A stretch of 64,000 nt of DNA from Candidatus Omnitrophota bacterium (GCA_903908245.1 CAIVRE010000030.1:11857-75856); one strand, 5' to 3'. Shown: positions 2,803 through 63,982, counted from the first letter of the stretch. Notes: a model not told the origin generated them from the sequence alone. A program made the numbers and translations.

Positions 2803-3710
2803 TTCGCTCCGGGAATATTTTTTGCTCTTTCCTCATCTTCCGCCTTGAGCCTTTGCGCCAACGAAGAATCAGGATATTTCTCCAGGACTTCGTGCCTGAC
2901 ACTCTGAACATCGTCCAACTTTTTCAATGCGTCATACGCAGTCATCAACTTCTGATAAACATCCTGGATGAACGCACTCTCGATATCCCTGGAAAGGAAA
3001 AAATTCGCCCTGATAAACTCGAAACTTTTCACCGAAGCCTCATTATCCTTGGAATTATCACTCACCAAACCCTGCAGATAAACACTGGCGAACTTGAAAG
3101 GGATAAATATATCATCCGAAGAAAATCCCTGGATCGTCCTGCAGGTAAATTCCTCCAATAAAGCATCCGGATAACGGGCAGCGACTTTCCCGATCTCATC
3201 CGCAAAAAGCAATGCCTGTTCTTTATCGCCCGCCAAAAGAGCTTTATTAAATAAACAATAAGCACCCATGAATTCGGCATCCTTGGCGAACCTGCTGTTC
3301 GGATTATCTTTGGAAAACTGCGTAAACTTATCCGTCGCCTTCGCCAATAACGGCCCGGTCCATCCGGCCTCCTTGGACGATTGAAAAATATCACTCAAGA
3401 TCTGACCGAAAAGATCCCGCTTGTCGGCAGGTGCATACTCCCGGGGCGCTCCCGCACTGACAACAGGCGGTACAGCACCCTGCGCCGGAGAACCGGCACT
3501 CGCTGCCTGCCCATCCACCATATCGATCTCATCAAGGTAATATTTGATCGGCGTCCCGTTAAACTCAACCTCAACATATTCCGCGGTCTTGTTGATAAGC
3601 TTTCCTTCCACCACCTTTCCGGTCTTCAAATGAATAACCTCGGCGGAAACGATCAACGGGATAAAGATCCATACTGCTGTGGCAAAAACAATAACCATTC
3701 GCTTCTTCAT
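2799..3710 (-). CDS. hypothetical exported protein (signal peptide MKKRMVIVFATAVWIFIPLIVSA)
   Basis: ORF with N-terminal signal peptide, no recognisable catalytic motif; translationally coupled to the flanking DegT genes. Confidence 0.5.
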   Translation of the reverse strand: MKKRMVIVFATAVWIFIPLIVSAEVIHLKTGKVVEGKLINKTAEYVEVEFNGTPIKYYLDEIDMVDGQAASAGSPAQGAVPPVVSAGAPREYAPADKRDLFGQILSDIFQSSKEAGWTGPLLAKATDKFTQFSKDNPNSRFAKDAEFMGAYCLFNKALLAGDKEQALLFADEIGKVAARYPDALLEEFTCRTIQGFSSDDIFIPFKFASVYLQGLVSDNSKDNEASVKSFEFIRANFFLSRDIESAFIQDVYQKLMTAYDALKKLDDVQSVRHEVLEKYPDSSLAQRLKAEDEERAKNIPGAK

Positions 3711-4897: not shown

Positions 4898-6193
4898 TCA
4901 TTGGGACAGGACCGGTCTTTTTTTAAAAACTTCTTTGAGTATAGTATTGGCCATATTCTCGGCCAGCAGGCGGTTGCCTTTATCTGTACAATGGCCAAAG
5001 TCATAACCGAACGAATCACGGAAATATTCCCGGTAGCTGCCCTTCTCAAGCGCCGCTTTAAATATCTTTTCGTTATCCACGAAAACAACGCCTTCTGCCT
5101 TGCCTTGAAAGATCTTCTTTAACGGTCCCAAATTGCGAATGGGATACTGCGCACAGACATATACTATGCCTCTTTTATGCAGGATCGTCCGGAGTTTAAG
5201 ATAATTATTATTTGTCATTGGACAATAGTAACCTGCTCTTAATTCCCTGGCCTTCTTGCCGTATCTGCCCGCAAGCACCGAATTACCCTTTTCTATATTT
5301 AATACTTCCAATGCTCCGTATGTCATGTCATCTTTTGGATTGAGTTCTATTGCCCTCTTGAATGCCTCTTCCGCCTCGGCAAATTTATTCTGGTTCAGAT
5401 AAGAAACTCCCAGCTCAACATACGCCCAATCATTTTTAGGATCATGCCCTATTGTCCTCCTGAACAGCTCCTCCGCCTCGGCAAATCTCATCTGCCGCCG
5501 GTAAGAAACTCCCAGCTCAATAGGCGCCCTGGCATCTTTGGGATCAAGTTCAATGGCCCTCCTGAATAACTCATCCGCTTCAGAAAATTTACCCTGGCGT
5601 CGATAGAAAACTCCCAGCTCGACATCCGACCCATTGTTCTTTGAGTTGAGATCTAAAGGCCTGCCCTGGTTTGGAGAAGGAACTTCCTCCCTGTGAACAT
5701 CTTCTTTCTTCAGCTTCTTGAGGATATGCGTGTATATGAGCCGGCTGAACCTGTATGCCCGGCAGTGCCGAAATAGCCAGCCATCAGCCTCGGGTATGTC
5801 CTGATAATACATTATCCCGCCATCATTACACCCCATCATTGTTACCACTATATCAGGCTTATACTTGTCAAGATTCGCCTCTAATTGCGATAATATCACT
5901 CCTGTATCAATGCCGATCAATCCCCTGTCGATAACACTGAATTTAACGCCAACATTCCGCTGGTTAAGCACCTCCTCAAGAAACCGCGGGTATTGGTTCA
6001 GGGTGGTCGACTCTCCCAGGCACATGATGCGGCAAGAGCCTTTCTCTTTGATGGCTTGCAGGTTCTTATATTCCTGCAGGGATAACATTATAAAACCGCC
6101 CAGGCGCAAACCTGTCTCAAGGATCAAGGCAGCCAGGAACAATCCGCAAAATATGACGGCAAGTCTTTGATGTTTATAGAATTCAACCTTCAT
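4898..6193 (-). CDS. membrane-anchored SGNH/GDSL-family hydrolase with inserted TPR repeats (paralog 1 of 3)
   Basis: N-terminal TM helix; SGNH blocks GESTT (I), GCND (III), DFGHCT (V); ~5 TPR-like repeats (ELFRRAIELDPKDA...) between blocks III and V. Confidence 0.75.
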   Translation of the reverse strand: MKVEFYKHQRLAVIFCGLFLAALILETGLRLGGFIMLSLQEYKNLQAIKEKGSCRIMCLGESTTLNQYPRFLEEVLNQRNVGVKFSVIDRGLIGIDTGVILSQLEANLDKYKPDIVVTMMGCNDGGIMYYQDIPEADGWLFRHCRAYRFSRLIYTHILKKLKKEDVHREEVPSPNQGRPLDLNSKNNGSDVELGVFYRRQGKFSEADELFRRAIELDPKDARAPIELGVSYRRQMRFAEAEELFRRTIGHDPKNDWAYVELGVSYLNQNKFAEAEEAFKRAIELNPKDDMTYGALEVLNIEKGNSVLAGRYGKKARELRAGYYCPMTNNNYLKLRTILHKRGIVYVCAQYPIRNLGPLKKIFQGKAEGVVFVDNEKIFKAALEKGSYREYFRDSFGYDFGHCTDKGNRLLAENMANTILKEVFKKRPVLSQ

Positions 6194-37132: not shown

Positions 37133-37160
37133 ATATTAATTAACCGTTTCACCCCGGGAA

Positions 37161-37187
37161 CCTCCTTCACCCCCGGGGTGAAGGAGG
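37161..37187 (-). promoter_or_regulatory. near-perfect 27-nt GC-rich palindrome (12-bp stem) right after the dnaK stop codon
   Basis: cctccttcacccccggggtgaaggagg is almost its own reverse complement; lies between dnaK stop (37188) and dnaJ start (37132); no U-tract follows. Confidence 0.55.
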
Positions 37188-39119
37188 TTATTTATCATCC
37201 TTTACTTCAAAGTCGGCATCAATAACGCCGTCGCGTTTCTTGGGGCCGTCAGACTTCGGCTCTTCCTTGGGCTGATCCGGCTGGCCCTGCCCGGCACCGG
37301 CCGCATCCGGCCCCGCCCCGCCGCCTTCGGCCGCCCCGGCTCCGCCGGCCTGCGCAGCCGTGGCTTTATACATTTCCTCGGCCAATTTATGGCTGGCCTT
37401 GGTAAGCGCTTCCGTCGCGGTCTTGACGCGGTCCGCGTTCTTGTCCTTGACCGCCTGCTTGAGCGCTTCAAGCTCCTTCATGATCTCCTCACGCTCGGCC
37501 TGCGGCACCTTGTCGCCGTAATCCTTGAGCGCTTTCTCCGTCGAATAAACAAGGGTGTTCGCCTGGTTGACCATCTCGGCTTCTTCCTTGCTCTTCTTGT
37601 CCTGCTCGGCATATTTCTCGGCGTCTTTGACCATCTTCTGGATCTCTTCCTCGGACAATTTCTTGGGGGACGTGATCTGAATGGACTGCTCTTTCCCTGT
37701 AGCCTTATCCTTGGCGTGCACATGCACGATCCCGTTCACGTCGATATCAAAGGTCACCTCGATCTGCGGAACCCCGCGCGGAGCAGGCGGAATACCCACC
37801 AGGTCAAAACGGCCCAGCTCGACATTGTCATTGGACATCTGGCGCTCACCCTGCAGGACGCGGATCGTGACCGCGGGCTGATTGTCTTCTGCCGTTGAAA
37901 ATACATTGCTCTTCTTGGTCGGGATGGTCGTATTGCGTTCGATCATCTTGGTCATGACCCCGCCCATTGTCTCGATCCCGAGCGTCAGGGGCGTCACATC
38001 CAAAAGAAGCACATCTTTCACATCCCCCTTGATGATCCCCGCCTGGACCGCGGCCCCGAGGGCCACGCACTCCATCGGGTCGATCCCGCGCTCGATCTTC
38101 TGGGCAACCTCTTTCTCCACGAAATCCTGAACGATCGGCATGCGGGTAGGCCCACCGACCATGATGATCTTGTCGACTTTCACTTCTGTCCCGAGCTTGG
38201 CCGAGGCATCTTTCATCGCCTGACGGATAGGTCCGCGGCAACGTTCCACAATAGGGCCGACCAGGGATTCCAGTTTCGCGCGGTCAAGGGTCAGGGCCAA
38301 ATGCCGCGGGCCGGAAGCGTCCGCCGTAATGAACGGAAGGTTGACCTCGGTCTGGACCGTGCTGGAAAGCTCAACCTTGGCTTTTTCCGCCGCTTCACGC
38401 AAACGATGGAACGCCATCTTGTCCTGCGAAAGGTCAATGCCGCTTTCCTTCTTGAACTCATTGACGATATGCCCGATCAGCGCATTATCCATGTCTGTGC
38501 CGCCGAGCAAATTGTCGCCGCTGGTGGAAAGGACCTCAAAGGTCCCGCCTTCGCCCATCTCGAGGATGGTCACGTCCAGCGTACCGCCGCCAAGGTCGAA
38601 CACCATGATCTTCTGTTCCTTGCCGGCCTTGTCGATCCCGTAAGCCAGGCACGCGGCCGTCGGCTCATTGATGATCCGCATGACCTTGAGGCCCGCGATC
38701 TCGCCCGCATCCTTCGTGGCCTGGCGCTGATTGTCATTGAAATACGCCGGGACCGTGATGACCGCGCCATCAACCGTATCACCCAAATACTTCTCGGCAT
38801 CCGCCTTAATCTTCTGCAGGATGAACGCCGATACCTGCTGGGGCGTGAATTCCTTGCCCATCACATTGAATTTATGGTCGGTCCCCATCTTGCGCTTGGC
38901 GGCATAAATCGTGCCCTGGGAATTCACCGCGGCCTGACGGCGCGCCGGTTCACCCACCAGGCGCTGGTCATCCTTGGTGAACGCCACAAAAGAAGGGAAC
39001 GCCTTGCCCGAAGCCACGCCGGCGCCTTCCGCCGACGGAATGATCACCGGACGGCCGCCTTCCATGACTGCCGCCGCTGAATTTGATGTGCCTAAATCGA
39101 TACCTATGAACTTTGCCAT
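37188..39119 (-). CDS. dnaK: molecular chaperone DnaK (Hsp70)
   Basis: [22 protein letters not shown]...; full Hsp70 signature regions. Confidence 0.97.
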
Positions 39120-53373: not shown

Positions 53374-54444
53374 TTAAATTAATGGCACAACCCTGTCCAG
53401 GCAATCCTCGATGAACGCCGCGCAGGCCTGGTATTGCGCCCGCGCGTGGCCGATAGGATCGGGAATATCCAGGTCGGCCTCCCGAAGGGCCGCGGCACTG
53501 CGAAACTCGCCCAGCAGATAAACCCTCGCCTCAACGCCCGGCACGCGCTCAAGCACCTGAGAACGGTGCGCGCGCGTCATCACAAAAACAAGGTCCGACT
53601 TCTTGAGCAGCATGTTGGTGACCGGCTGGGACAAATGCTCGCGCGCGTCCATCCCGAAACTCTTGAGGACCTGCACCGCTTCCTGACTAGCAGATGTCGG
53701 AAAAAGCACGCCGGTCCCGCAGGACGCCACATCGACGTTCTGGCGGCCCTTGACCCTCTTCTTTAACAGATATTCCGCCATCACCGAACGACAGCTGTTA
53801 CCGGTACAAACGAACAGGATATTCTTCCGCCCGACCACCGCATCAACGTCTTTCTGACTGATCACGCCCTCACGAACGACCGTCGGCCTCGGCTTCGTAA
53901 AATCAACGATCGTTGACGCCGTTCCTATATTGACCTTCCCGCTGTCGATCGCAATATCGACCAGCCCCTCCAGGTCACGCAAAGCCTCGGCACAGGTCGT
54001 CGGTGCCGGATTGCCTTCAAAATTCGCCGATGGCGCCGCGATCGTGCAACGCGCGTTCTCCACCAGCCTGAGGGCCACCGGATGGTCCGGGATACGGATC
54101 CCGATCGTCGCCCCCGTCTTTTCACCGGCCGCAGGGACGATCACTGTAAGCGGCCCCGGCCAATAACGGTCGATCAATTTAAAAAGTTTCGGGTCTGTAT
54201 ATGACGTATAATTACGGACAAGTTCTTTCTGCGCGATCATCACAGAGAACGGCTTGTCATCCGAACGTTTCTTGACTTCCCGCAAACGCTTCATCGCCAC
54301 AGGATTGGAATTGTCCGCCGCGATCCCGTAAACCGTCTCCGTCGGAAAGACCACCAGCCCCCCCTTGTGCACGCAGGCCGCGGCTTCAAGGATGGCGGAC
54401 GCCCCCGGGGCGCTCAGATCGATCTTAAGGACTTTGGTCTTCAC
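53374..54444 (-). CDS. fusion: L-threonylcarbamoyladenylate synthase (YrdC/TsaC, Sua5/YwlC-like) + C-terminal low-molecular-weight protein (Tyr/Arg) phosphatase
   Basis: N-terminal half FPTETVYGIAAD...SANFEG (YrdC fold); C-terminal half NILFVCTGNSCRSVMAEYLL (CX5R P-loop) and DIPDPIG (DP acid). Confidence 0.8.
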   Translation of the reverse strand: MKTKVLKIDLSAPGASAILEAAACVHKGGLVVFPTETVYGIAADNSNPVAMKRLREVKKRSDDKPFSVMIAQKELVRNYTSYTDPKLFKLIDRYWPGPLTVIVPAAGEKTGATIGIRIPDHPVALRLVENARCTIAAPSANFEGNPAPTTCAEALRDLEGLVDIAIDSGKVNIGTASTIVDFTKPRPTVVREGVISQKDVDAVVGRKNILFVCTGNSCRSVMAEYLLKKRVKGRQNVDVASCGTGVLFPTSASQEAVQVLKSFGMDAREHLSQPVTNMLLKKSDLVFVMTRAHRSQVLERVPGVEARVYLLGEFRSAAALREADLDIPDPIGHARAQYQACAAFIEDCLDRVVPLI

Positions 54445-54455
54445 CGCAGCACCTG

Positions 54456-54932
54456 TTAACCCTTCAATATCTTCTCGGCCTGGTCATTCGTAAAATTGTC
54501 CAGTTTCTTTAGAAGCTTCGCGTCAGACAATGCCAGGATACGCACCGCGATCAATGCCGCGTTCTTGGCGCCGGGCTTGCCGATGCCAACGCCCGCCACC
54601 GGAACTCCGGGCGGCATCTGGACCGTCGAAAGCAGGGCATCCAGGCCATTGAACCCCATCGACTCAAGCGGAATGCCGATGACCGGGATCTGGGTATGCG
54701 CCGCAACGGTCCCGGCCAATGCCGCGGACCCGCCAGCCGCACAGATCACCACCTTGATCCCGCGCGCGCCAAGCCCTTGCGCATATTCCGCGGTCTGTCT
54801 GGGCGTACGATGCGCGGAAAGCACCTTCACTTCATTGCCTATGCCAAAGGCATCGAGCATCTTGACCGCCTCTTCCACGACCGGCATATCGTTCTTGCTG
54901 CCCATCATTAACGCGACCTGTATATTTGACAT
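54456..54932 (-). CDS. purE: N5-carboxyaminoimidazole ribonucleotide mutase
   Basis: VALMMGSKNDMPVVEEA...LSAHRTP...VVICAAGGSAALAG. Confidence 0.95.
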   Translation of the reverse strand: MSNIQVALMMGSKNDMPVVEEAVKMLDAFGIGNEVKVLSAHRTPRQTAEYAQGLGARGIKVVICAAGGSAALAGTVAAHTQIPVIGIPLESMGFNGLDALLSTVQMPPGVPVAGVGIGKPGAKNAALIAVRILALSDAKLLKKLDNFTNDQAEKILKG

Positions 54933-54943
54933 AAATTTCTCCC

Positions 54944-56209
54944 TTATCTTTGAAGCGCCTTCTGCCCGATATCTTTTCTGTATTGCATGCCGTCAAAAGA
55001 GATCACAGACACCGCCTTATAAGCATATTCGATCGCCCGCGTGATGCCGGGGCCCAGCGCGGTCACGCCCAAAACCCGCCCGCCGGAACTGACGACCTTA
55101 CCACCTTCTTTTTTAGTCCCCGCGTGAAACACGCCCGCATCCCCTGGCACATCCCCCAGACCCCTGATCTCTTTGCCTGAGGAATAATCGCCCGGATACC
55201 CGCCGGCCGCCATCACCACGCAAACACACGCGCGGCTGTCCCATTCCAGTTCCATCCCTGACAAACCGCCGGCAACAGATGCCAGCATCATAGTTACAAT
55301 ATCACTTTTTAACCGCGGAAGCACGGCCTGTGTTTCAGGGTCGCCAAAACGCGTGTTGAACTCCAGGACCTTCGGCCCCTGTGCTGTCACCATAATGCCC
55401 GCATAAAGAATCCCCTTGAACGGCGCGCCGTCCTTGTGCATCCCCTCGATCGACGGCCGGATGACCGTCTCTGATATCTCCGCCATCAAAGCAGGCGTCA
55501 CGACCGGCGCGGGCGAATACGCCCCCATCCCGCCGGTATTCGGCCCCTGGTCATTGTCAAAGATACGCTTGTGGTCCTGGCTTGATTCCAGAATAATAAA
55601 ATCTTTTCCATCAGCGACCGCCAGGATGGACGCTTCTTCACCGTAAAGAAATTCTTCAATGACCACGCGCTTGCCGGCATCCTTGAAAACACGGTCCGAC
55701 ATAATGCTTTTAAGCGCGGCAACAGCCCCGGCTTTATCCTGACAAATAATAACGCCCTTTCCCGCAGCCAATCCATCAGCCTTAACGACCAAAGGAAAGC
55801 GGCACTTGTCCAGGAAAGCAATGGCCGGCGCAATAGCATCAAAAGAACCATACGAGGCCGTCGGGATATGATGGCGGGCCATGAACTCTTTAGCAAAAGC
55901 CTTGCTGCCTTCCAGGCGCGCCGCGGCTTTGGAAGGGCCAAAGGCCTTCAAACCTGCCTTTTCAAAAACATCAACGATCCCCAGGACCAAAGGCACTTCA
56001 GGCCCGACGACCGTCAGATCTATTTTGTTGTCTTGAGCAAACTTGAGGAGGGAAGCAATATCATCCGCTTTGATATTAACGCAATCGGCGAGAGCGGCGA
56101 TGCCCCCGTTGCCGGGAGCGCAGAAAACTTTTGTCACACGAGGACTCTGGCGGATCTTCCACACCAGGGCATGCTCACGACCGCCTGAACCAACGACAAG
56201 GATCTTCAT
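54944..56209 (-). CDS. purD: phosphoribosylamine-glycine ligase
   Basis: MKILVVGSGGREHALVWKI... Confidence 0.95.
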   Translation of the reverse strand: MKILVVGSGGREHALVWKIRQSPRVTKVFCAPGNGGIAALADCVNIKADDIASLLKFAQDNKIDLTVVGPEVPLVLGIVDVFEKAGLKAFGPSKAAARLEGSKAFAKEFMARHHIPTASYGSFDAIAPAIAFLDKCRFPLVVKADGLAAGKGVIICQDKAGAVAALKSIMSDRVFKDAGKRVVIEEFLYGEEASILAVADGKDFIILESSQDHKRIFDNDQGPNTGGMGAYSPAPVVTPALMAEISETVIRPSIEGMHKDGAPFKGILYAGIMVTAQGPKVLEFNTRFGDPETQAVLPRLKSDIVTMMLASVAGGLSGMELEWDSRACVCVVMAAGGYPGDYSSGKEIRGLGDVPGDAGVFHAGTKKEGGKVVSSGGRVLGVTALGPGITRAIEYAYKAVSVISFDGMQYRKDIGQKALQR

Positions 56210-56229
56210 TCGCCTGCCTTCATGCTAGG

Positions 56230-56394
56230 GCTTTTCGGTTGAAGCCAATGACCAATATTTTTTCGGCCGGGCCGACCATGACGCCCTAAAAAGCCGTGAG
56301 ACTCGACCTTCATATTCGGCAGGGTTTTGGTTATGCCACCGGTCGGCCCTTAAGCCTTCAAAAACATTAGTCATTGGCTTAGAGACCGAAAAGC
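56230..56394. repeat. ~165-nt imperfect palindrome (nested inverted repeats) in the purM-purD intergenic region / purD 5' leader; candidate structured RNA or MITE-like element
   Basis: Arms: gcttttcggt (56230-39) / accgaaaagc (56385-94); aagccaatgac (56242-52) / gtcattggctt (56370-80, perfect 11 nt); gggccgacc (56269-77) / ggtcggccc (56341-49); ~63-nt apical region. Ends 20 nt upstream of the purD ATG. Confidence 0.6.
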
Positions 56395-56490
56395 TGCAAA
56401 ACAATGAAACCAATTCCAACTTTTCATTACTGCGCAATTGGCTTAAGTTCCAACGACAGCCCCGGCAAGCAATAAGGCGACAAAACACAT

Positions 56491-57489
56491 TTAGATCAAT
56501 TCTAACTTCTCTTTGCCGCGCTTGATGACCTTGCCGATCACATACGACGGTATACCGGTCTTGCGCAAGGCCTGTTGGACTTTAATAACCTCAATAGGCT
56601 TCACGACCACAATAAACCCGACGCCCATGTTAAAAGTGCGATACAACTCGCGCTCGGCAATATCTGCCTTCTTCATGATCAGATCAAAGACCTCAGGCAT
56701 GGGCCAGGTCCCTTTGGTGATCTCAAGCGCGCAGGTGTCGGGCAAACATTTAGTCAATTTCTCATAAAACGCACCGCCGGTATTATGCGCCATACCATGA
56801 ATATCAAACCTGCCGATCAAAGGCAGGATGTTCTTCACATAAATGCGCGTCGGCTCAAGGATCAGCTTCGCATATTTCTTTTGCTCTGCAGGACTAAAAA
56901 CTTTACGCACCAGCGAATAACCATTGGAATGCGCGCCGCTCGATGGAAGCGCGATCACTACATCTCCCGGCTTTATTTTAGAACCATCAATGATCTTCGA
57001 CTTCTCGACCACGCCAACGGTAAAACCCGCAAGATCGTAATCTTCCGCCTTATACATCCCGGGCATTTCGGCGGTTTCACCGCCGGTCAACGCGCAACCC
57101 GCCTGACGGCAGCCTTCGGCAATGCCCTTCATCACCTCAACTAAAATTTTCTTGTCAACCTTCCCGCAGGCCACATAATCAAGGAAGAACAATGGCTTGG
57201 CTCCAACACACAGAACATCATTAACATTCATCGCAACAAGGTCAATGCCCACCGTATCGTGCTTGCCAACATGATTGGCGATCAAAAGCTTGGTACCAAC
57301 GCCATCGGTTGAAGAAACCAGCACCGGCTCTTTGTACCCCTTAGGCAACGCGAACAGCGAACCAAATGCGCGGGTACGGTCCATCACGCCAGGCTGGCGC
57401 GTTGACTTCACCAGGCCCTTGATAGCCCCGACAAATTCATCCGCCTTCTGGATATCCACACCACTGTCTTTATAAGTCAATTTCTTCAT
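56491..57489 (-). CDS. purM: phosphoribosylformylglycinamidine cyclo-ligase
   Basis: PurM/AIR synthase pattern (YKDSGVDI..., GGETAEMPG). Confidence 0.95.
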   Translation of the reverse strand: MKKLTYKDSGVDIQKADEFVGAIKGLVKSTRQPGVMDRTRAFGSLFALPKGYKEPVLVSSTDGVGTKLLIANHVGKHDTVGIDLVAMNVNDVLCVGAKPLFFLDYVACGKVDKKILVEVMKGIAEGCRQAGCALTGGETAEMPGMYKAEDYDLAGFTVGVVEKSKIIDGSKIKPGDVVIALPSSGAHSNGYSLVRKVFSPAEQKKYAKLILEPTRIYVKNILPLIGRFDIHGMAHNTGGAFYEKLTKCLPDTCALEITKGTWPMPEVFDLIMKKADIAERELYRTFNMGVGFIVVVKPIEVIKVQQALRKTGIPSYVIGKVIKRGKEKLELI

Positions 57490-58313
57490 AGCAAGTGCTT
57501 CTTCACGTAATCAATGCCATTCTGGAAGACCTTGGCGCCGTCGCCGAAACCCGTTCGGGCGACCCGGCGGGACGCCCCTACATTCAGGCGCGTCCAGAAA
57601 GGATGCTGCGTAAAAAGAAAATGACGCTCCGGGTGCGGCATAAGCCCCAGGATACGCCCCGTCGGATCGCAAATGCCCGCGATATCTTCCGTAGATCCGT
57701 TCGGATTATCCGGATACGCCGGCTTACTTCCGTCGGCCGCGACATAAGAGAACACGATCTGCCCGTTCTTCTTAAGGCCATCCATCACAGCCCTGTTCAC
57801 AGGAATAAATTTCCCCTCGCCATGGGCGACAGGGATAAAAATTGTTTTTGGAAGATCTTTCGTCCAGACGCATTTCCCGTCAACCTTCAGGTGCACCCAG
57901 CGGTCCTCGAACTTGCCCGAATCATTATTGAATAAAGTCGCCGTCTGGATCGTCTTTGAACCTGCGGCAAAAGGCCCGGGCAGGATCCCGCTCTTCACCA
58001 GGATCTGAAACCCGTTGCAAATACCGATAATGAGCTTCCTGTCCTTGATGAACTTCGCCACATCTGCGCCCAACCGGACGCGCAGCTCATTGGCAAAGAT
58101 CCGCCCCGACGCAATATCATCGCCGTAGCTGAACCCGCCCGGCAGCGCCAGGATATGATAATCCTTCATGGCCACACGCCCGGCAAAAAGCTCCTGCAAA
58201 TGGACCTGATCGACATCGGCGCCGCATTGCTCAAAGGCAAAAGCGGTCTCCACGTTGCAATTCGTTCCGGCGGTGCGCAATACTAGGACGCGGGGTTTAT
58301 TGGCCATGCTCAT
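57486..58313 (-). CDS. purQ: phosphoribosylformylglycinamidine synthase I (glutaminase subunit)
   Basis: Class I GATase with catalytic IGICNGFQ. Confidence 0.9.
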   Translation of the reverse strand: MSMANKPRVLVLRTAGTNCNVETAFAFEQCGADVDQVHLQELFAGRVAMKDYHILALPGGFSYGDDIASGRIFANELRVRLGADVAKFIKDRKLIIGICNGFQILVKSGILPGPFAAGSKTIQTATLFNNDSGKFEDRWVHLKVDGKCVWTKDLPKTIFIPVAHGEGKFIPVNRAVMDGLKKNGQIVFSYVAADGSKPAYPDNPNGSTEDIAGICDPTGRILGLMPHPERHFLFTQHPFWTRLNVGASRRVARTGFGDGAKVFQNGIDYVKKHLL

Positions 58314-58972
58314 TTCTTCTTGCGATAAAAATCCTTGATGATCCTGACCACTTCTTCCGGCTCATCAACAATATGATAAAGATACAGATCGTTCTCATCG
58401 ATGCACTTCTCGCCCAACAGCCTTTCCTTCATCCACTCCTGCAGGCCCTTCCAGAAATAACTGCCCACCATAATGACCGGGACTTTCGGCATGCGCCCGG
58501 TCTGGGTGAGCGTAAGGCTCTCAAAAAGCTCATCAAGCGTACCAAAACCGCCCGGGAACACCACCACCGCTTTGGCGTATTTCACGAACATCACCTTGCG
58601 GCAGAAGAAATAATGGAAGTTCACCAATGTCCGGATATACGGATTGGGCTTCTGCTCGAAGGGAAGCTCGATATTAAGCCCGATGCTCTCGCCCTTCGCC
58701 ATGAACGCCCCGCGATTGCCCGCCTCCATGATGCCAGGCCCTCCGCCTGTAATAACAGAATATTTGTTCTCTGCCAGCAACTTCGCCGTCTGCTCGCACA
58801 ATTGATACATCCTGTGGTTCGGCTTCAAACGTGCCGACCCAAAAATAGTCACCGCGTTCTCGACAGAATGAAGCCGGTCAAACCCCTCCACGAATTCCGC
58901 CATGATGCGAAAAATGCGCCACTGGTCCATTTCGTAAAAATCCGTCGACACCTTCTGTTCTTTTTTAGGCAT
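58310..58972 (-). CDS. LOG-family (TIGR00730) nucleotide 5'-monophosphate nucleosidase-like protein
   Basis: GGGPGIMEA and PGGFGTLDELFE LOG motifs. Confidence 0.85.
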   Translation of the reverse strand: MPKKEQKVSTDFYEMDQWRIFRIMAEFVEGFDRLHSVENAVTIFGSARLKPNHRMYQLCEQTAKLLAENKYSVITGGGPGIMEAGNRGAFMAKGESIGLNIELPFEQKPNPYIRTLVNFHYFFCRKVMFVKYAKAVVVFPGGFGTLDELFESLTLTQTGRMPKVPVIMVGSYFWKGLQEWMKERLLGEKCIDENDLYLYHIVDEPEEVVRIIKDFYRKKK

Positions 58973-58982
58973 TAGGGGCCCC

Positions 58983-61892
58983 TTAAAACATTAATGGTTT
59001 CTTCCACTGTGCCTTAAGCACATTGATATCCGCCTTCAGGCAAAGATTGTCCTTCAGGCCGTAATAAAACACCGCTTCATCCGCCAGCACCTGCCCGACC
59101 AGCTTGCAGGGAACATCCTTCACGGCCTTCTCAAAAGCCTTCTTGTCCTGAGGCGCGACCTCAACGACAAAACGGGAATTCGACTCGGAGAACAGGAGCA
59201 TGTCATCACGGTCCGAATGCCCCTCATACGGCACGCTTTTCAAAAGAAGCGCCGCGCCTAACCCTCCGGCAAAAGCCATCTCGGCCACCGCAACGGCCAG
59301 GCCGCCTTCGGAACAATCATGCGCCGAAGATACCAGTCCCCTGGCGATCGCCTTCGACAGCGACGTATAAACAGCCAATGCTTCCCGCGGACGGACCACC
59401 GGCACCTGCCCGCCGATATAACCGTACGACGCCAGGTAAGCCGACGCGCCCCATTCATCATATGTTGAACCGACCACATAAAGCAGCCCGCCGGCCCGCT
59501 TAAGGTCCATGGTGACCGAACGCGTAACATCGGCCACCATCCCGATCGCAGAGATCAGGATGGTCCCGGGGATCGCAATGGACTTGCCTTTATCGTTATA
59601 CTCGTTATAAAAACTGTCCTTGCCGGAAATGAACGGTGTGCCATAGGCGACCGCGAGATCATGACAACCTTTGGCCGCACGCACCAGCCCGCCCAGGCGA
59701 TCAGGTTTATCCGGATTCCCCCAGCAGAAATTGTCAAGCAGCGCGACCTGCGAAAGATCCCCGCCGACTGCAATGATCTGACGGATCGCTTCATCGACAG
59801 CGGACGCTGCCATCCAGTACGGATCGATCGCGCCAAAACGGGGATTGATCCCGTTGGATATCGCGATACCTTTATCCGTCCCCAAACGCGGCCGGAGCAC
59901 ACTGGCGTCGGATGGGCCATCGCATTTCGGCCCCGCGAAAGGCTTCACCACGCTGCCGCCCTGCACTTCATGATCATAACGGCGGACAACCGCTTCCTTG
60001 GAACAAATATTGAAATCCGCCAGGACCTCCATCAGCTTCGGCGTAAGGTCCGCCGGGCTTTCGAATTTCGGCATTTCATGCTTCGGCGCGGACCACAACG
60101 CTTTTTTGGTGATCCGGGGAGTCCCTTCATGCATAAAGGCCATATCCAGGTCGGCCATCCGCATGCCATTATAAAAAAGTTCGAGCCGCCCCGTACCGGG
60201 GAAAGTGCCGATGACCGCAAAATCCACATTCTCGGCGGCGAATATCTGCTTGAAACGTTCCAGGTTCTTCGGAGGGACCGACATGACCATCCGCTCCTGG
60301 GATTCCGAGATCCAGATCTCGGCATAATTCAACCCATGGTATTTCAGCGGCACAAGCTCCAGGTCAACGCGCGCGCCCAATTCCGCACCCATCTCGCCGA
60401 CCGCGCTCGAAAGCCCGCCCGCCCCGCAATCAGTAATGGCGGTATAAAGGCCTTCATCCCGCGCCTTGAGCAGGACATCCAAAACCTTCTTTTCTTCAAT
60501 AGGATTCCCGATCTGCACCGCGCCGGAAGACACCACCTCGGACTCGTGCGTCAGGTCTCCCGACGAAAACGTTGCGCCGTGAATGCCGTCGCGCCCGGTG
60601 CGGCCGCCGCAAACAACGATCAGGTCGTTCTTTTTAACTTTCTTGTGTTCCATCTTTCTGGGAATGATCCCGACCGTACCGCAAAAGACCAGCGGATTGC
60701 CCACATAACGGTCATCAAAACAAATAGCCCCGTTGACCGTCGGAATGCCCATCTTGTTGCCATAATCACGCACTCCGCTGACCACCCCCTTCATCACACG
60801 CTTGGGATGAAGGGCTCCGGACGGCAATTGATCAAAAGCAAAATCCGGACGGGCAAAACAAAACACATCCGTATTGCATATCGGCTTTGCGCCAAGGCCG
60901 GTCCCCAGGATATCGCGGATAACGCCACCCACGCCCGTATTGGCGCCACCGAACGGCTCCAGCGCGGAAGGATGGTTATGCGTCTCCACCTTGAAACACA
61001 CGTTGAACTTGTCATCAAATTTAATAACACCGGCGTTATCATGAAAGACCGACACACACCACGGCTTGTTCAGCGTGTTGGTGGCTTTAACGATGGTCTG
61101 CTTGAGCAGATTCTCAATGAACTCGGTCGTCGACTTCTTGCCTTCGGTGACGGTATACTCGATATTCCCGCGGAAAGTCTTGTGATTGCAATGCTCGCTC
61201 CAGGTCTGCGCCAGCGTCTCAAGCTCGATATCCGTCGGCTCGCGCTTCAAGCCCGCGAAATACTTCTCGATGACCTTCATCTCGTTCAAATTCAGATAAA
61301 GCTGCCCCTTTTTGCTCAACTCAACAAGCGCTTTATCGGACAAGCCGAGCATCCTGACCCTGGCCGGTTCGGGCGTGCTTAACACAGGTTCTTTTTGAGC
61401 AACAGACAACGGCCGGAAACTGTCCCGGGCATCTTTGACCGCATGCTGAACGATCTTGTTCATCAATACTTTATCTTTGATCAGCTCAAGCTCTTTGGAC
61501 GACAACGCGCCTTCTATAATATACCTGCGTGCCGTACGGACCGCGGTCACACCGCTTAACCCAAGGTCATGGATGCCTTTTAGAGTTGACGCTTCGACAG
61601 GGTCCATCACGCCGGGATTATACGCAACCTCAACTTCGCTGATACCTTTGCGGGGAGAAACTTTTGACGGGCGGTCGGTCAGGATATAATCCTGCACAAC
61701 AAGATCGACCAACAGGTTCCGGCAAATGCGGTCGGCGACAGGGCGGTCAATATCGCCTTCCAGAAGAAAAACCTGCACCGCACGCACATCCTTCACCGAC
61801 ACAATGCCAAGGTCAAGGATATCGTGACGCACGCCGGCGCCTGTCGAGTCAAATATGCCAGGTTTTTCCTGGATCTCAATACGCCAGATCAT
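58983..61892 (-). CDS. purL: phosphoribosylformylglycinamidine synthase II (PurL) with ~230-aa N-terminal PurS-like extension
   Basis: Core smPurL motifs (TWSEHCNHKTF...); 969 aa vs ~740 for smPurL, the extra N-terminus looks like two PurS-like units. No separate purS ORF seen. Confidence 0.85.
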   Translation of the reverse strand: MIWRIEIQEKPGIFDSTGAGVRHDILDLGIVSVKDVRAVQVFLLEGDIDRPVADRICRNLLVDLVVQDYILTDRPSKVSPRKGISEVEVAYNPGVMDPVEASTLKGIHDLGLSGVTAVRTARRYIIEGALSSKELELIKDKVLMNKIVQHAVKDARDSFRPLSVAQKEPVLSTPEPARVRMLGLSDKALVELSKKGQLYLNLNEMKVIEKYFAGLKREPTDIELETLAQTWSEHCNHKTFRGNIEYTVTEGKKSTTEFIENLLKQTIVKATNTLNKPWCVSVFHDNAGVIKFDDKFNVCFKVETHNHPSALEPFGGANTGVGGVIRDILGTGLGAKPICNTDVFCFARPDFAFDQLPSGALHPKRVMKGVVSGVRDYGNKMGIPTVNGAICFDDRYVGNPLVFCGTVGIIPRKMEHKKVKKNDLIVVCGGRTGRDGIHGATFSSGDLTHESEVVSSGAVQIGNPIEEKKVLDVLLKARDEGLYTAITDCGAGGLSSAVGEMGAELGARVDLELVPLKYHGLNYAEIWISESQERMVMSVPPKNLERFKQIFAAENVDFAVIGTFPGTGRLELFYNGMRMADLDMAFMHEGTPRITKKALWSAPKHEMPKFESPADLTPKLMEVLADFNICSKEAVVRRYDHEVQGGSVVKPFAGPKCDGPSDASVLRPRLGTDKGIAISNGINPRFGAIDPYWMAASAVDEAIRQIIAVGGDLSQVALLDNFCWGNPDKPDRLGGLVRAAKGCHDLAVAYGTPFISGKDSFYNEYNDKGKSIAIPGTILISAIGMVADVTRSVTMDLKRAGGLLYVVGSTYDEWGASAYLASYGYIGGQVPVVRPREALAVYTSLSKAIARGLVSSAHDCSEGGLAVAVAEMAFAGGLGAALLLKSVPYEGHSDRDDMLLFSESNSRFVVEVAPQDKKAFEKAVKDVPCKLVGQVLADEAVFYYGLKDNLCLKADINVLKAQWKKPLMF

Positions 61893-62596
61893 TTCCCTGT
61901 TACTCTCTTTAAGACTTCCTGATAACCTTCTTTAATATTGCCAAGGTCATTGCGGAAGCGGTCTTTATCCAGGCGGACACCGGTCCCGACCTCCCAAAGG
62001 CGGCAGGTATCGGGTGAGATCTCATCCGCCAGGATGATCTCGCCCTTACAGCGGCCGAACTCGATCTTGAAATCGATCAGCTCGATATTAAGCGCCAGAA
62101 AAAACTTCTTCATCAGCTCATTGACCTTCATGGTGATCGTCCTGATCGCACGCAGTTCCTCTTCCGTCGCGAGGCCAAGCGCCACCACATGGTCGTCATT
62201 CATGAGCGGATCATTGAACGCATCGTTCTTGTAGCATAATTCATAGATCGGCCGCGCAAGCGTCTTGCCTTCCGGCACTCCGTAATTACGGCACAGGGAG
62301 CCAGCCGCACGGTTACGGATAATGACCTCGACCGGGACAATACTGACCTTCTTGACCAGCATTTCACGGTCACTCAGCTTCTTGACAAAATGCGTAGGGA
62401 CCCCGCTCTTTGTCAGGAATTCGAACATGCTCGATGAAATACCGTTGTTCATCACGCCTTTTTCATCGATAACGCCCTTCTTCTTGCCATTCCCTGCCGT
62501 CGCATCATCCTTGAAATACTGGATGACCAGGTCCGCGTTATCCGTCGCGTAAAGGATCTTGGCCTTGCCTTCGTAAAGCTTCTCTCTTTTCTCCAT
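61889..62596 (-). CDS. purC: SAICAR synthetase
   Basis: MEKREKLYEGKAKILYATD...; start at the internal MEKRE. Confidence 0.93.
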   Translation of the reverse strand: MEKREKLYEGKAKILYATDNADLVIQYFKDDATAGNGKKKGVIDEKGVMNNGISSSMFEFLTKSGVPTHFVKKLSDREMLVKKVSIVPVEVIIRNRAAGSLCRNYGVPEGKTLARPIYELCYKNDAFNDPLMNDDHVVALGLATEEELRAIRTITMKVNELMKKFFLALNIELIDFKIEFGRCKGEIILADEISPDTCRLWEVGTGVRLDKDRFRNDLGNIKEGYQEVLKRVTGK

Positions 62597-62686
62597 ACAT
62601 TGCCCCTTTATCATTATCGGGACACATAGAATTTTCGATCAGTCGACCGCAGAAAAATTCAATATGTCCCGTGCATGACCTCAGTA

Positions 62687-63982
62687 TTATTTAATCCCCA
62701 CGCGCTTGAACACATAATCGCGATGCTTGATGTAATACTTGATATCAAAACACGCATCGATCTCTTCCTTGGAAAGATACTTGCGCACACGGCGGTCGCG
62801 GTTAAGCACATCACGGAAGTCGGATGTTTCCTGCCACACCTGCATGGCCGCGCTCTGAATGATCTCGTAAGCCTCGCTGCGCGCCAGGCCCTTCTTCATC
62901 AACTCCAGCAAACAACGCTGGGAATAGATCAGCCCGCGCGTGATCTGCAGGGAATTGATCATGTTCTTGGGGTAAACCAGAAGCCCGTCGATCAAGGGGA
63001 TGAACTTGTTGAGCATATAATCCAGGGCGATCGTGCTGTCCGGCAGGATGATCCGCTCGGCGGAACTGTGGCTGATGTCGCGCTCGTGCCACAACGCGAT
63101 ATTATCCAGCCCGATCGACGCATTCGCCTTGAGGATACGCGCCAGCCCGCAGATCCGCTCGCACGTCACAGGGTTGCGCTTGTGCGGCATGGCCGAAGAC
63201 CCGATCTGGCCTTTGAAAAAAGGCTCTTCCACTTCAAGCACTTCCGTCTTCTGCAACAGGCGGATCTCGGTCGCGAATTTATTGAGGGACGCGCCCACCA
63301 GGGCGAGCACATTGAGGAAATTCGCGTGATGATCGCGCTGAATGACCTGGGTCGCGATATTCGCCGGCTTTAAATTCAATTTCTGACAAACATATTCTTC
63401 GACAAAGGGGTCAATATTCGCGTATGTTCCGACCGCCCCCGAAAGCTTACCCACGCGCATATCTTCCGCGGCGAGCTCCAGGCGCTTGAGGTTGCGCGTC
63501 ATCTCATCATACCAAAGCGCCATCTTGAGGCCGAACGTCATCGGCTCGGCATGTACGCCATGGGTACGCGCGATACAAACCGTATCCTTGTACTTCTTGG
63601 CTTTCGCCTTGAGGATCGCCAGCAGCTTCTTCATGTCGCCGATCAGGATATCGGACGCTTCCACGCACTGAACAGAAATAGACGTATCAATAAGGTCGGA
63701 CGACGTCATCCCCATATGAAGATACTGGGCTTCCGCTCCGATATTCTCGCCGACATTATGGATGAACGCCACCACATCGTGCTTGGTGCGCTCTTCAATG
63801 CGCTTGACCTCGTCAAGGTCGAACTTGGCGTTCTTTTTGATCTTCTCGAGCGCGGGCTTGGGGATCTTGCCGAGCTGACACATGGCCTCACAGGCCAAGA
63901 CTTCGATCTGAAGCATGATCTCGAGCTTGCGCTGCTCGGACCAAATGCGGCCCATCTTGGAAAGTGTGTAACGGTCGATCAT
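62687..63982 (-). CDS. purB: adenylosuccinate lyase
   Basis: MIDRYTLSKMGRIWSEQRKLEIMLQIEVLA...; fumarate-lyase signature. Confidence 0.95.
   Translation of the reverse strand: MIDRYTLSKMGRIWSEQRKLEIMLQIEVLACEAMCQLGKIPKPALEKIKKNAKFDLDEVKRIEERTKHDVVAFIHNVGENIGAEAQYLHMGMTSSDLIDTSISVQCVEASDILIGDMKKLLAILKAKAKKYKDTVCIARTHGVHAEPMTFGLKMALWYDEMTRNLKRLELAAEDMRVGKLSGAVGTYANIDPFVEEYVCQKLNLKPANIATQVIQRDHHANFLNVLALVGASLNKFATEIRLLQKTEVLEVEEPFFKGQIGSSAMPHKRNPVTCERICGLARILKANASIGLDNIALWHERDISHSSAERIILPDSTIALDYMLNKFIPLIDGLLVYPKNMINSLQITRGLIYSQRCLLELMKKGLARSEAYEIIQSAAMQVWQETSDFRDVLNRDRRVRKYLSKEEIDACFDIKYYIKHRDYVFKRVGIK

Follow-up and report, generated by a model that had tools for sequence, protein, structure and literature searches.

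The window, the 64,000-nt stretch of DNA that was analysed, derives from a Candidatus Omnitrophota MAG and carries a purine operon on its minus strand. The operon contains, in the direction of transcription, purB (62687-63982), purC (61889-62614), a PurS-PurL fusion gene (58983-61892) encoding a 969-aa PurL with an N-terminal region matching PurS, a TIGR00730/LOG-family gene for a PpnN-like nucleotide nucleosidase (58310-58972), purQ (57486-58313), purM (56491-57489), purD (54944-56209), purE (54456-54932), and a Sua5/TsaC-phosphatase fusion gene that joins tsaC to a low-molecular-weight phosphatase domain (53374-54444). purM encodes phosphoribosylformylglycinamidine cyclo-ligase (TIGR00878, E = 5e-131) and ends with a TAA stop codon at 56493-56491, while purD encodes phosphoribosylamine-glycine ligase (TIGR00877, E = 3e-170) and starts with an ATG at 56209. 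The window PurM is present on ENA and Logan metagenome contigs, and its named relatives are all Candidatus Omnitrophota MAGs.

The junctions of the operon measure -4 to 11 nt, with the exceptions of purB-purC (72-90 nt) and purM-purD (281 nt; 56210-56490). An earlier note, made from the sequence of this DNA, had called the two genes correctly and put the gap between them at 280 nt. Its statement that every other junction spans a few nucleotides or overlaps holds for the junctions of -4 to 11 nt but not for purB-purC. Although unusual in a purine operon, the LOG-family gene is stably kept. Its position between purL and purQ is the same in all inspected relatives with sequence there (L001/L002, L015/L016, L017, L018-L020, L022-L024, L050, and L051).

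The purM-purD gap contains a palindromic element of ~167 nt (56228-56394), which can be read on either strand and whose bounds are the start and stop of homology to a second copy in the related genome L021. The inverted-repeat arms span 165 nt and end 20 nt before the purD ATG. Specifically, the element comprises an outer stem (56230-56239/56385-56394) with 10/10 complementary positions, a middle stem (56242-56262/56360-56380) with 19/21, and an inner GC stem (56269-56277/56341-56349) with 9/9, which enclose an asymmetric apical region of 63 nt (56278-56340). The bulges are asymmetric as well, with TG on one side and AGAG on the other. The nested arms, the ~63-nt apical region, and the ~165-nt extent up to 20 nt before the purD AUG had all been described in the earlier note and were confirmed here. 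The 20 nt of purD leader outside the hairpin (56210-56229, minus strand) contain a Shine-Dalgarno (SD)-like GAAGG at 56221-56217, 7 nt before the AUG.

The long hairpin before purD is real and far above chance. The RNA fold of the spacer, a check proposed in the earlier note, scored z = -6.3 for the minus and -5.9 for the plus strand, and a fold as good was seen in 0 of 200 shuffles. Folded as single-stranded DNA, the element has a z-score of -7.8. When 170-nt windows were slid along the 64 kb (2554 in all), none deviated more than the element on either strand; after regression on GC content, its z-scores were -7.5 (minus) and -5.3 (plus).

The rest of the spacer also has a recognizable structure. 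Read from purM, the order is the true purM end, ~38 nt of intervening sequence, a pseudo-purM end, the element, and the 20-nt leader. The first of these, copy A (56474-56521, minus strand), comprises the true purM 3' end and stop codon followed by TGTGTTTTG..GC.TT. Copy B (56390-56435, minus strand), directly upstream of the palindrome, is a decayed pseudo-3' end of purM (GCGCAGTAATGAAAAGTTGGAATTGGTTTCA TTGTTTTG). The two copies were detected as direct repeats D1/D2; their local alignment scores 28, compared with a shuffle mean of 14.6 (sd 2.4), and only 1 of 1000 shuffles reaches 28 (p ~0.001). Copy B also matches the purM 3' ends of two relatives, L017 and L019, in blastn. The ~38-nt segment between the copies (56436-56473, minus strand; repeats D5, I2, and I11) includes a stretch, TAAGCCAAT at 56445-56437, whose weak homology to the 5' arm of the element hints at a degenerate second copy of that arm. 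The significant duplicate of the purM 3' end marks the spacer as the scar of a rearrangement. Specifically, a tandem duplication of ~86 nt, covering the junction of the purM end and the element arm, supplied the rest of the spacer. It happened once the element was in place and left the decayed pseudo-purM end behind.

The purM-purD junction was compared in nine related genomes, found via their PurM or PurD proteins. The element has no counterpart in five of them, whose PurM proteins are 84-90% identical to that of the window: L016 (PurM 90%; gap 3 nt), L023 (88%; gap -4, an overlap), L047 (87%; 6 nt), L050 (86%; 34 nt), and L051 (84%; ~23 nt). L019 (93%) and L022 (88%) have gaps of 147 and 96 nt, respectively, each with a short hairpin and a sequence unrelated to the window spacer. 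L021 (GCA_002753745.1; 92%) holds the element in a gap of 193 nt. The contig of L017 (GCA_015233765.1; 93%) ends 90 nt after purM, and these 90 nt contain no full element. A search with PurD for further members of the clade returned only more distant relatives, the closest of which, P0152, has a gap of 58 nt. Since the junction is tight in most relatives, a tight purM-purD junction is ancestral. In the PurM tree, long spacers are confined to a small clade consisting of the window organism, L017, L019, L021, and L022. The element is thus not conserved among relatives, an outcome that the earlier note itself had named as a refutation and that speaks against its regulatory readings.

The L021 copy (2458-2625) is 91% identical to the window element over 165 nt and lies in the opposite orientation. 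The L021 strand that reads in the purM direction corresponds to the plus strand of the window, which is antisense to purM there. The whole interior is flipped between the two genomes, including the asymmetric bulges and the 63-nt apex, while the site is the same: in both, 10-11 nt separate the purM stop codon (for the window, the pseudo-stop) from the start of the element, and 17-20 nt lie between its end and the purD AUG. The flip is not a mis-orientation introduced by assembly, because perfect runs within the arms are at most 13 nt long, far below assembler k-mer sizes, and because two independent assemblies have an identical window spacer. No target-site duplication is visible at the window or the L021 copy; the sequences across the ends are ...ctagg|GC..GC|tgcaaa for the former and ...gcgcg|GGCC..GGCC|aacaca for the latter, and neither pair of flanks forms a direct repeat.

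Two further genomes retain a single outer arm. In L017, whose PurM is 98% identical to that of L021, the 90 nt after purM contain one outer arm, CAACCGAAAAGCCCT, followed by a right flank of the window type, such that L017 and the window have CAACCGAAAAGCCCT.G..GGCAGGC in common. In the outgroup L051, the other outer arm stands alone, as GGGCCTATCGGT (3016-3027), immediately before the purD ATG. The outer-arm 12-mer (forms GGGCCTATCGGT or its complement ACCGAAAAGCCC), which lies at 4041-4052 in L017, occurs nowhere but at this junction in the 51 loci compared. The solo arm of L051 fits growth of a palindrome in place from the native spacer as well as it fits the remnant of a deletion. The L017 contig stops (4089) inside the variable spacer, which may reflect an assembly break at a palindrome or repeat.

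Further copies were sought in the host, in the relatives, and in public collections. The earlier note had suggested a multi-copy test by blastn. Within the 64-kb window, blastn at word size 7 found only the element itself, as did searches with the arm patterns (up to 3 mismatches), with a general repeat finder, and with covariance model R1, which was built on both copies and run with filters off. There was no further copy in 55 kb of the relatives' loci. In GTDB genomes, the exact arm 20-mer AAGCCAATGACYAATRTTTT gave 12 single matches of ~20-25 nt each in unrelated phyla, and in JGI metagenomes an internal 20-mer common to both copies gave 20 matches of only 20-28 nt; both sets were read as chance. 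Two exact 20/21-mers gave 0 matches in viral contigs, and blastn with the element gave no match in plasmids, phages, or E. coli. The six-frame translation of the element, concatenated, had no match at E<=1 among 5.8 billion protein clusters. The power of these searches is low, as they cover the host by the 64-kb window, the relatives by 55 kb, and the collections by exact 20-mers; exact 20-mers would miss diverged copies, and AAGCCAATGACYAATRTTTT does not match even the L021 copy.

The element was compared with known families of palindromic repeats. GTAG-tagged REPs have an unpaired terminal GTAG (or GYAG/GTRG), a stem of 6-13 bp, and a short loop (Di Nocera et al. 2013, PMC3733652). The window contains one hairpin of this type, GTAG-GGGCCGAC-cttgt-GTCGGCCC-GGCAAATAGACAATA at 39673-39634 (minus strand), located at the hrcA-grpE junction within the annotated grpE ORF, upstream of the GrpE domain. 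Its GTAG, 8-bp stem, and 5-nt loop (39673-39649) agree with the GTAG-REP definition. The GTAG motif is also found in the purM-purD spacers of L019 (4044-4104) and L022 (3395-3434), which share GTAGGGGCYGAC-loop-GYCGGCCCG..RAATAGACRATA. GTAG-type REP hairpins, mainly described from Proteobacteria, therefore appear to exist in Omnitrophota too, as judged from these sequences. In L022, purM reads through the GTAG motif to give a 340-aa protein.

The large palindrome shares the stem GGGCCGAC/GTCGGCCC(GGC) with the hairpins of the window and of L019 and L022. On its more stable strand, the inner stem reads TTAAGGGCCGAC...GTCGGCCCGGC, compared with GTAGGGGCCGAC...GTCGGCCCGGC in the REP stem, with 10/12 and 11/11 bases matching. 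Like REPs, the element lies between unidirectional ORFs near the upstream stop codon. It differs from a GTAG REP in three respects. In both copies the stem is preceded by TTAA (TTAA+GGGCCGAC) instead of GTAG, the loop is 63 nt rather than the 2-15 nt of REPs, and the outer 35 bp of the stem have no REP counterpart. REP dimers, or REPINs, form a single large hairpin as well (Bertels and Rainey 2011, PMC3116915), whereas neither arm of the element is a tagged REP hairpin, and a weak TCGGC-CGG-GCCGA stem occurs in one arm only. By definition, the large palindrome is thus neither a REP nor a REPIN. A REP at this junction is a plausible source of it, or a plausible partner with which it recombined.

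ERIC (enterobacterial repetitive intergenic consensus) sequences of Enterobacteriaceae are reportedly imperfect palindromes of ~127 bp that lie in intergenic regions undergoing transcription. The element is likewise a long imperfect palindrome of similar size class that lies between co-transcribed genes in either orientation, varies between related species, has no clear target-site duplication or transposase, and is expected to form a hairpin in mRNA. It differs from ERIC in its phylum and in its single copy per genome seen here, as opposed to a multi-copy family, and blastn against 5,426 complete genomes of E. coli, a carrier of ERIC, gave no match to it. With MITEs and Correia-type elements (Neisseria CREE, pneumococcal RUP, and Rickettsia RPE), it has in common a length of ~100-200 bp, occurrence in both orientations, co-transcription with neighbouring genes, and terminal inverted repeats, here the outer 10-bp and 21-bp arms that are retained in the L021 copy. 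Insertion polymorphism between close relatives is a further common feature. Correia hairpins are RNase III substrates. In the searches made, the element showed no target-site duplication, additional copies, or related autonomous element. Of the four options in the earlier note, a MITE comes nearest, in view of the presence/absence polymorphism and the two orientations, but neither a target-site duplication nor a second copy was found in the data searched. A literature search gave no paper pairing Omnitrophota with MITEs.

Quasipalindromes are said to grow, to be corrected, and to invert by template switching between inverted repeats. With no need for a transposase, such a process would explain why the arms change jointly and why the interior flips while the outer arms stay fixed, as well as the adjacent duplication and the lone arms of L051 and L017. 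Template switching is a mutational process and not an element family, and is here a candidate explanation.

Taken together, the comparisons make it probable, though well short of certain, that the element is a young, lineage-restricted palindromic insertion of the ERIC/REP/MITE-like kind in an operon junction, and not a conserved leader. Its anatomy, location, polymorphism, and orientation behaviour are like those of ERIC, REP dimers, Correia elements, and MITEs, but it fits the sequence and multi-copy definition of none of these families. Either it is mobile at low copy number, or it has grown and inverted in place. In the ancestor, purM and purD overlapped or lay a few to ~30 nt apart. In one small clade, the junction would then have become a hotspot that accumulates palindromic DNA, in keeping with the other small palindromes at nearby junctions, namely at 39673-39634 in the window, between purM and purD in L019 and L022, and between purQ and purM in L023. 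Between the lineages of the window and L021, everything within the 10-12-bp outer inverted repeat is flipped. The outer arms could have recombined or served as sites of template switching, which would flip the interior in place, or a site-specific mobile palindrome could have inserted anew.

The element is presumably read through in the operon mRNA, where it would fold into an imperfect hairpin with ~40 stem bp. As the hairpin is not followed by a U-tract, it should not terminate transcription, and since purD keeps its own SD in the 20 nt outside the stem, its translation is possible without coupling to purM. Any effect would be that of a generic intercistronic hairpin, which might block 3'-exonucleases or be cut by RNase III and so shift the stability of the upstream segment relative to the downstream one, and would not depend on orientation. 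Such a generic, orientation-independent effect on the operon is most likely, and the element may well be neutral.

As an insertion, the locus would be a compact natural example of a tight operon junction that tolerates palindromic DNA. Duplication at the junction appears to have preserved the gene ends, purD acquires a ribosome-binding site of its own, and inversion or collapse of the insert can apparently occur over a span in which PurM changes by 2-8%. If whole genomes prove to carry more copies, the element would represent a new repeat family in a poorly studied phylum.

An alternative is that the element is a lineage-specific, selected intercistronic RNA, a recently evolved RNase III/exonuclease-barrier or translational-coupling device that sets the purM:purD ratio in either orientation. 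We consider this unlikely, but it accounts for several features. Besides the exceptional fold (z = -7.5 within the window), the stems of the window and L021 copies differ by two double changes from T-A to C-G (56232/56392 and 56256/56366) and by one repaired A.C mismatch (56257/56365). They also differ by one A-U to G-U change and two pair-breaking changes, and the apex differs by six substitutions or indels. This pattern suggests that palindromy has been maintained between the copies. The compensatory changes could reflect selection on RNA structure; palindrome-templated correction would yield the same paired changes without any RNA function. A covariation test on the two sequences has no power, as 132 of 500 shuffles reach the observed value.

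The strands of the element are also unequal. In the window, positions that are mismatched on the plus strand form G-U pairs on the transcribed minus strand, which folds to -84.0 kcal/mol compared with -73.7 kcal/mol for the plus strand, as would be expected of a selected RNA. However, the corresponding values for the L021 copy are -81.1 and -73.4 kcal/mol, and L021 transcribes the weaker strand. Because the same strand of the element folds better in both copies, whichever is transcribed, the strand asymmetry is uninformative on selection at the RNA level. When the whole spacer is folded to its minimum free energy, the SD/start region of purD pairs with the region just after the purM stop codon, which would suit a coupling device. 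This long-range pairing does not exceed chance expectation (p = 0.07 for shuffled sequence, and 16% of genomic 39-mers are as good), and translational coupling of purM and purD by this route was rejected. Moreover, the nearest relatives manage without the element, as illustrated by L017, which lacks the full element in its 90 nt despite its near-identical PurM to L021.

A bolder version of the insertion reading takes the element as the first known case of a new class of long palindromes in Omnitrophota, derived from REPs, that would home to tight junctions and flip in place between 10-12-bp outer repeats. As an intercistronic hairpin switchable by orientation, it would tune the downstream gene, here purD, and the GTAG hairpins at this junction in the sister species would be earlier or collapsed stages. 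We regard this as improbable.

The reversed interior could also point to an invertible DNA switch (inverton), in which the 10-12-bp outer repeats would serve as recombination sites and flipping of the interior within populations would modulate purD. The opposite interiors in two related species, the fixed outer arms and insertion point, and the restriction of the outer-arm 12-mer to this junction among the loci compared would all be expected of such a switch. It is nevertheless very unlikely: the interior is near-palindromic, so that a flip alters little beyond the 63-nt apex, which has no promoter-like site; the two independent assemblies of the window organism show a single orientation; the flanking genes are purine genes and tsaC, with no recombinase gene adjacent; and the inversion is seen between species and not within a population.

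An independent gene in the gap, either a small RNA gene (6S-like or other) or a gene for an 87-aa protein (56225-56488, minus strand), could sit in either orientation, and an 87-codon ORF with a GTG start does span the spacer. There is, however, no Rfam match to 6S or any other RNA and no sigma-70-like promoter in the spacer, and the 6S-like RNA proposed in the earlier note is dropped on these grounds. The ORF was not called by the gene callers of the source assemblies, has no NCBIfam match, and is broken in frame in L021. Its only matches among 1.84 billion representative proteins were two marginal ones to eukaryote-like tandem-repeat proteins, read as chance. An independent gene therefore deserves very little credence.

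The large structured RNA directly upstream of purD would also suit a riboswitch or attenuator responding to a metabolite of the purine pathway; we give this reading next to no credence, as there is no Rfam match in 56000-56700 (cmscan, 4227 families, E<=10; only a chance SmY match inside purM) or in the whole window on both strands at gathering thresholds (0 matches), the element has no fixed orientation in relatives (absent from L016, L023, L047, L050, and L051, inverted in L021, and replaced by other sequence in L019 and L022), a long duplex this close to perfect cannot accommodate a ligand pocket or a second fold, and GAAGG lies outside the hairpin with no significant pairing to cover it. 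The earlier note had already failed to recognize the cores of purine, ZTP, or PRPP riboswitches, in agreement with the Rfam scan; the riboswitch-like leader that it still entertained is contradicted by the same scan, by the absence of the element from most relatives, and by its inversion relative to purD in L021. Its further option, an internal terminator or attenuator, fails in that the hairpin has no U-tract after it on the transcribed strand. No intrinsic terminator was found on the minus strand of the spacer, where the hairpin is followed by CCCUAGCAUGAAGG and not by a U-run. For annotation, the lesson is that even a very strong hairpin before a purine gene does not attest to a riboswitch; here, a comparison with three or four related genomes sufficed to establish this.

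Other repeats and variable sites were noted in the window and its relatives. The purQ-purM junction, which is an overlap of 4 nt in the window, is a second variable junction of the operon. In relatives, it contains small unannotated ORFs of 81, 177, and 45 aa with no Pfam match (L015/L016, 2753-2998; L017, 2438-2971, and L021, 885-1418; L047, 1503-1640). In L023, the purQ-purM gap (2364-2500, 137 nt) contains a different palindrome, GTGTCATCCTGAGGGCGAAGCCCGAAGGATC ... GCTTCGCTTCGCTCAGCATGACG, another junction-colonising repeat. Within the window, a palindrome with perfect 15-bp arms around a single central nucleotide (AACCTCCTTCACCCC G GGGGTGAAGGAGGTT; 37159-37189) lies directly after the dnaK stop codon and has the appearance of a terminator-type hairpin. 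A tandem repeat at 5329-5624, with a period of 102 nt, 2.9 copies, and 73% matches (Tandem Repeats Finder), probably codes for a protein repeat of 34 residues.
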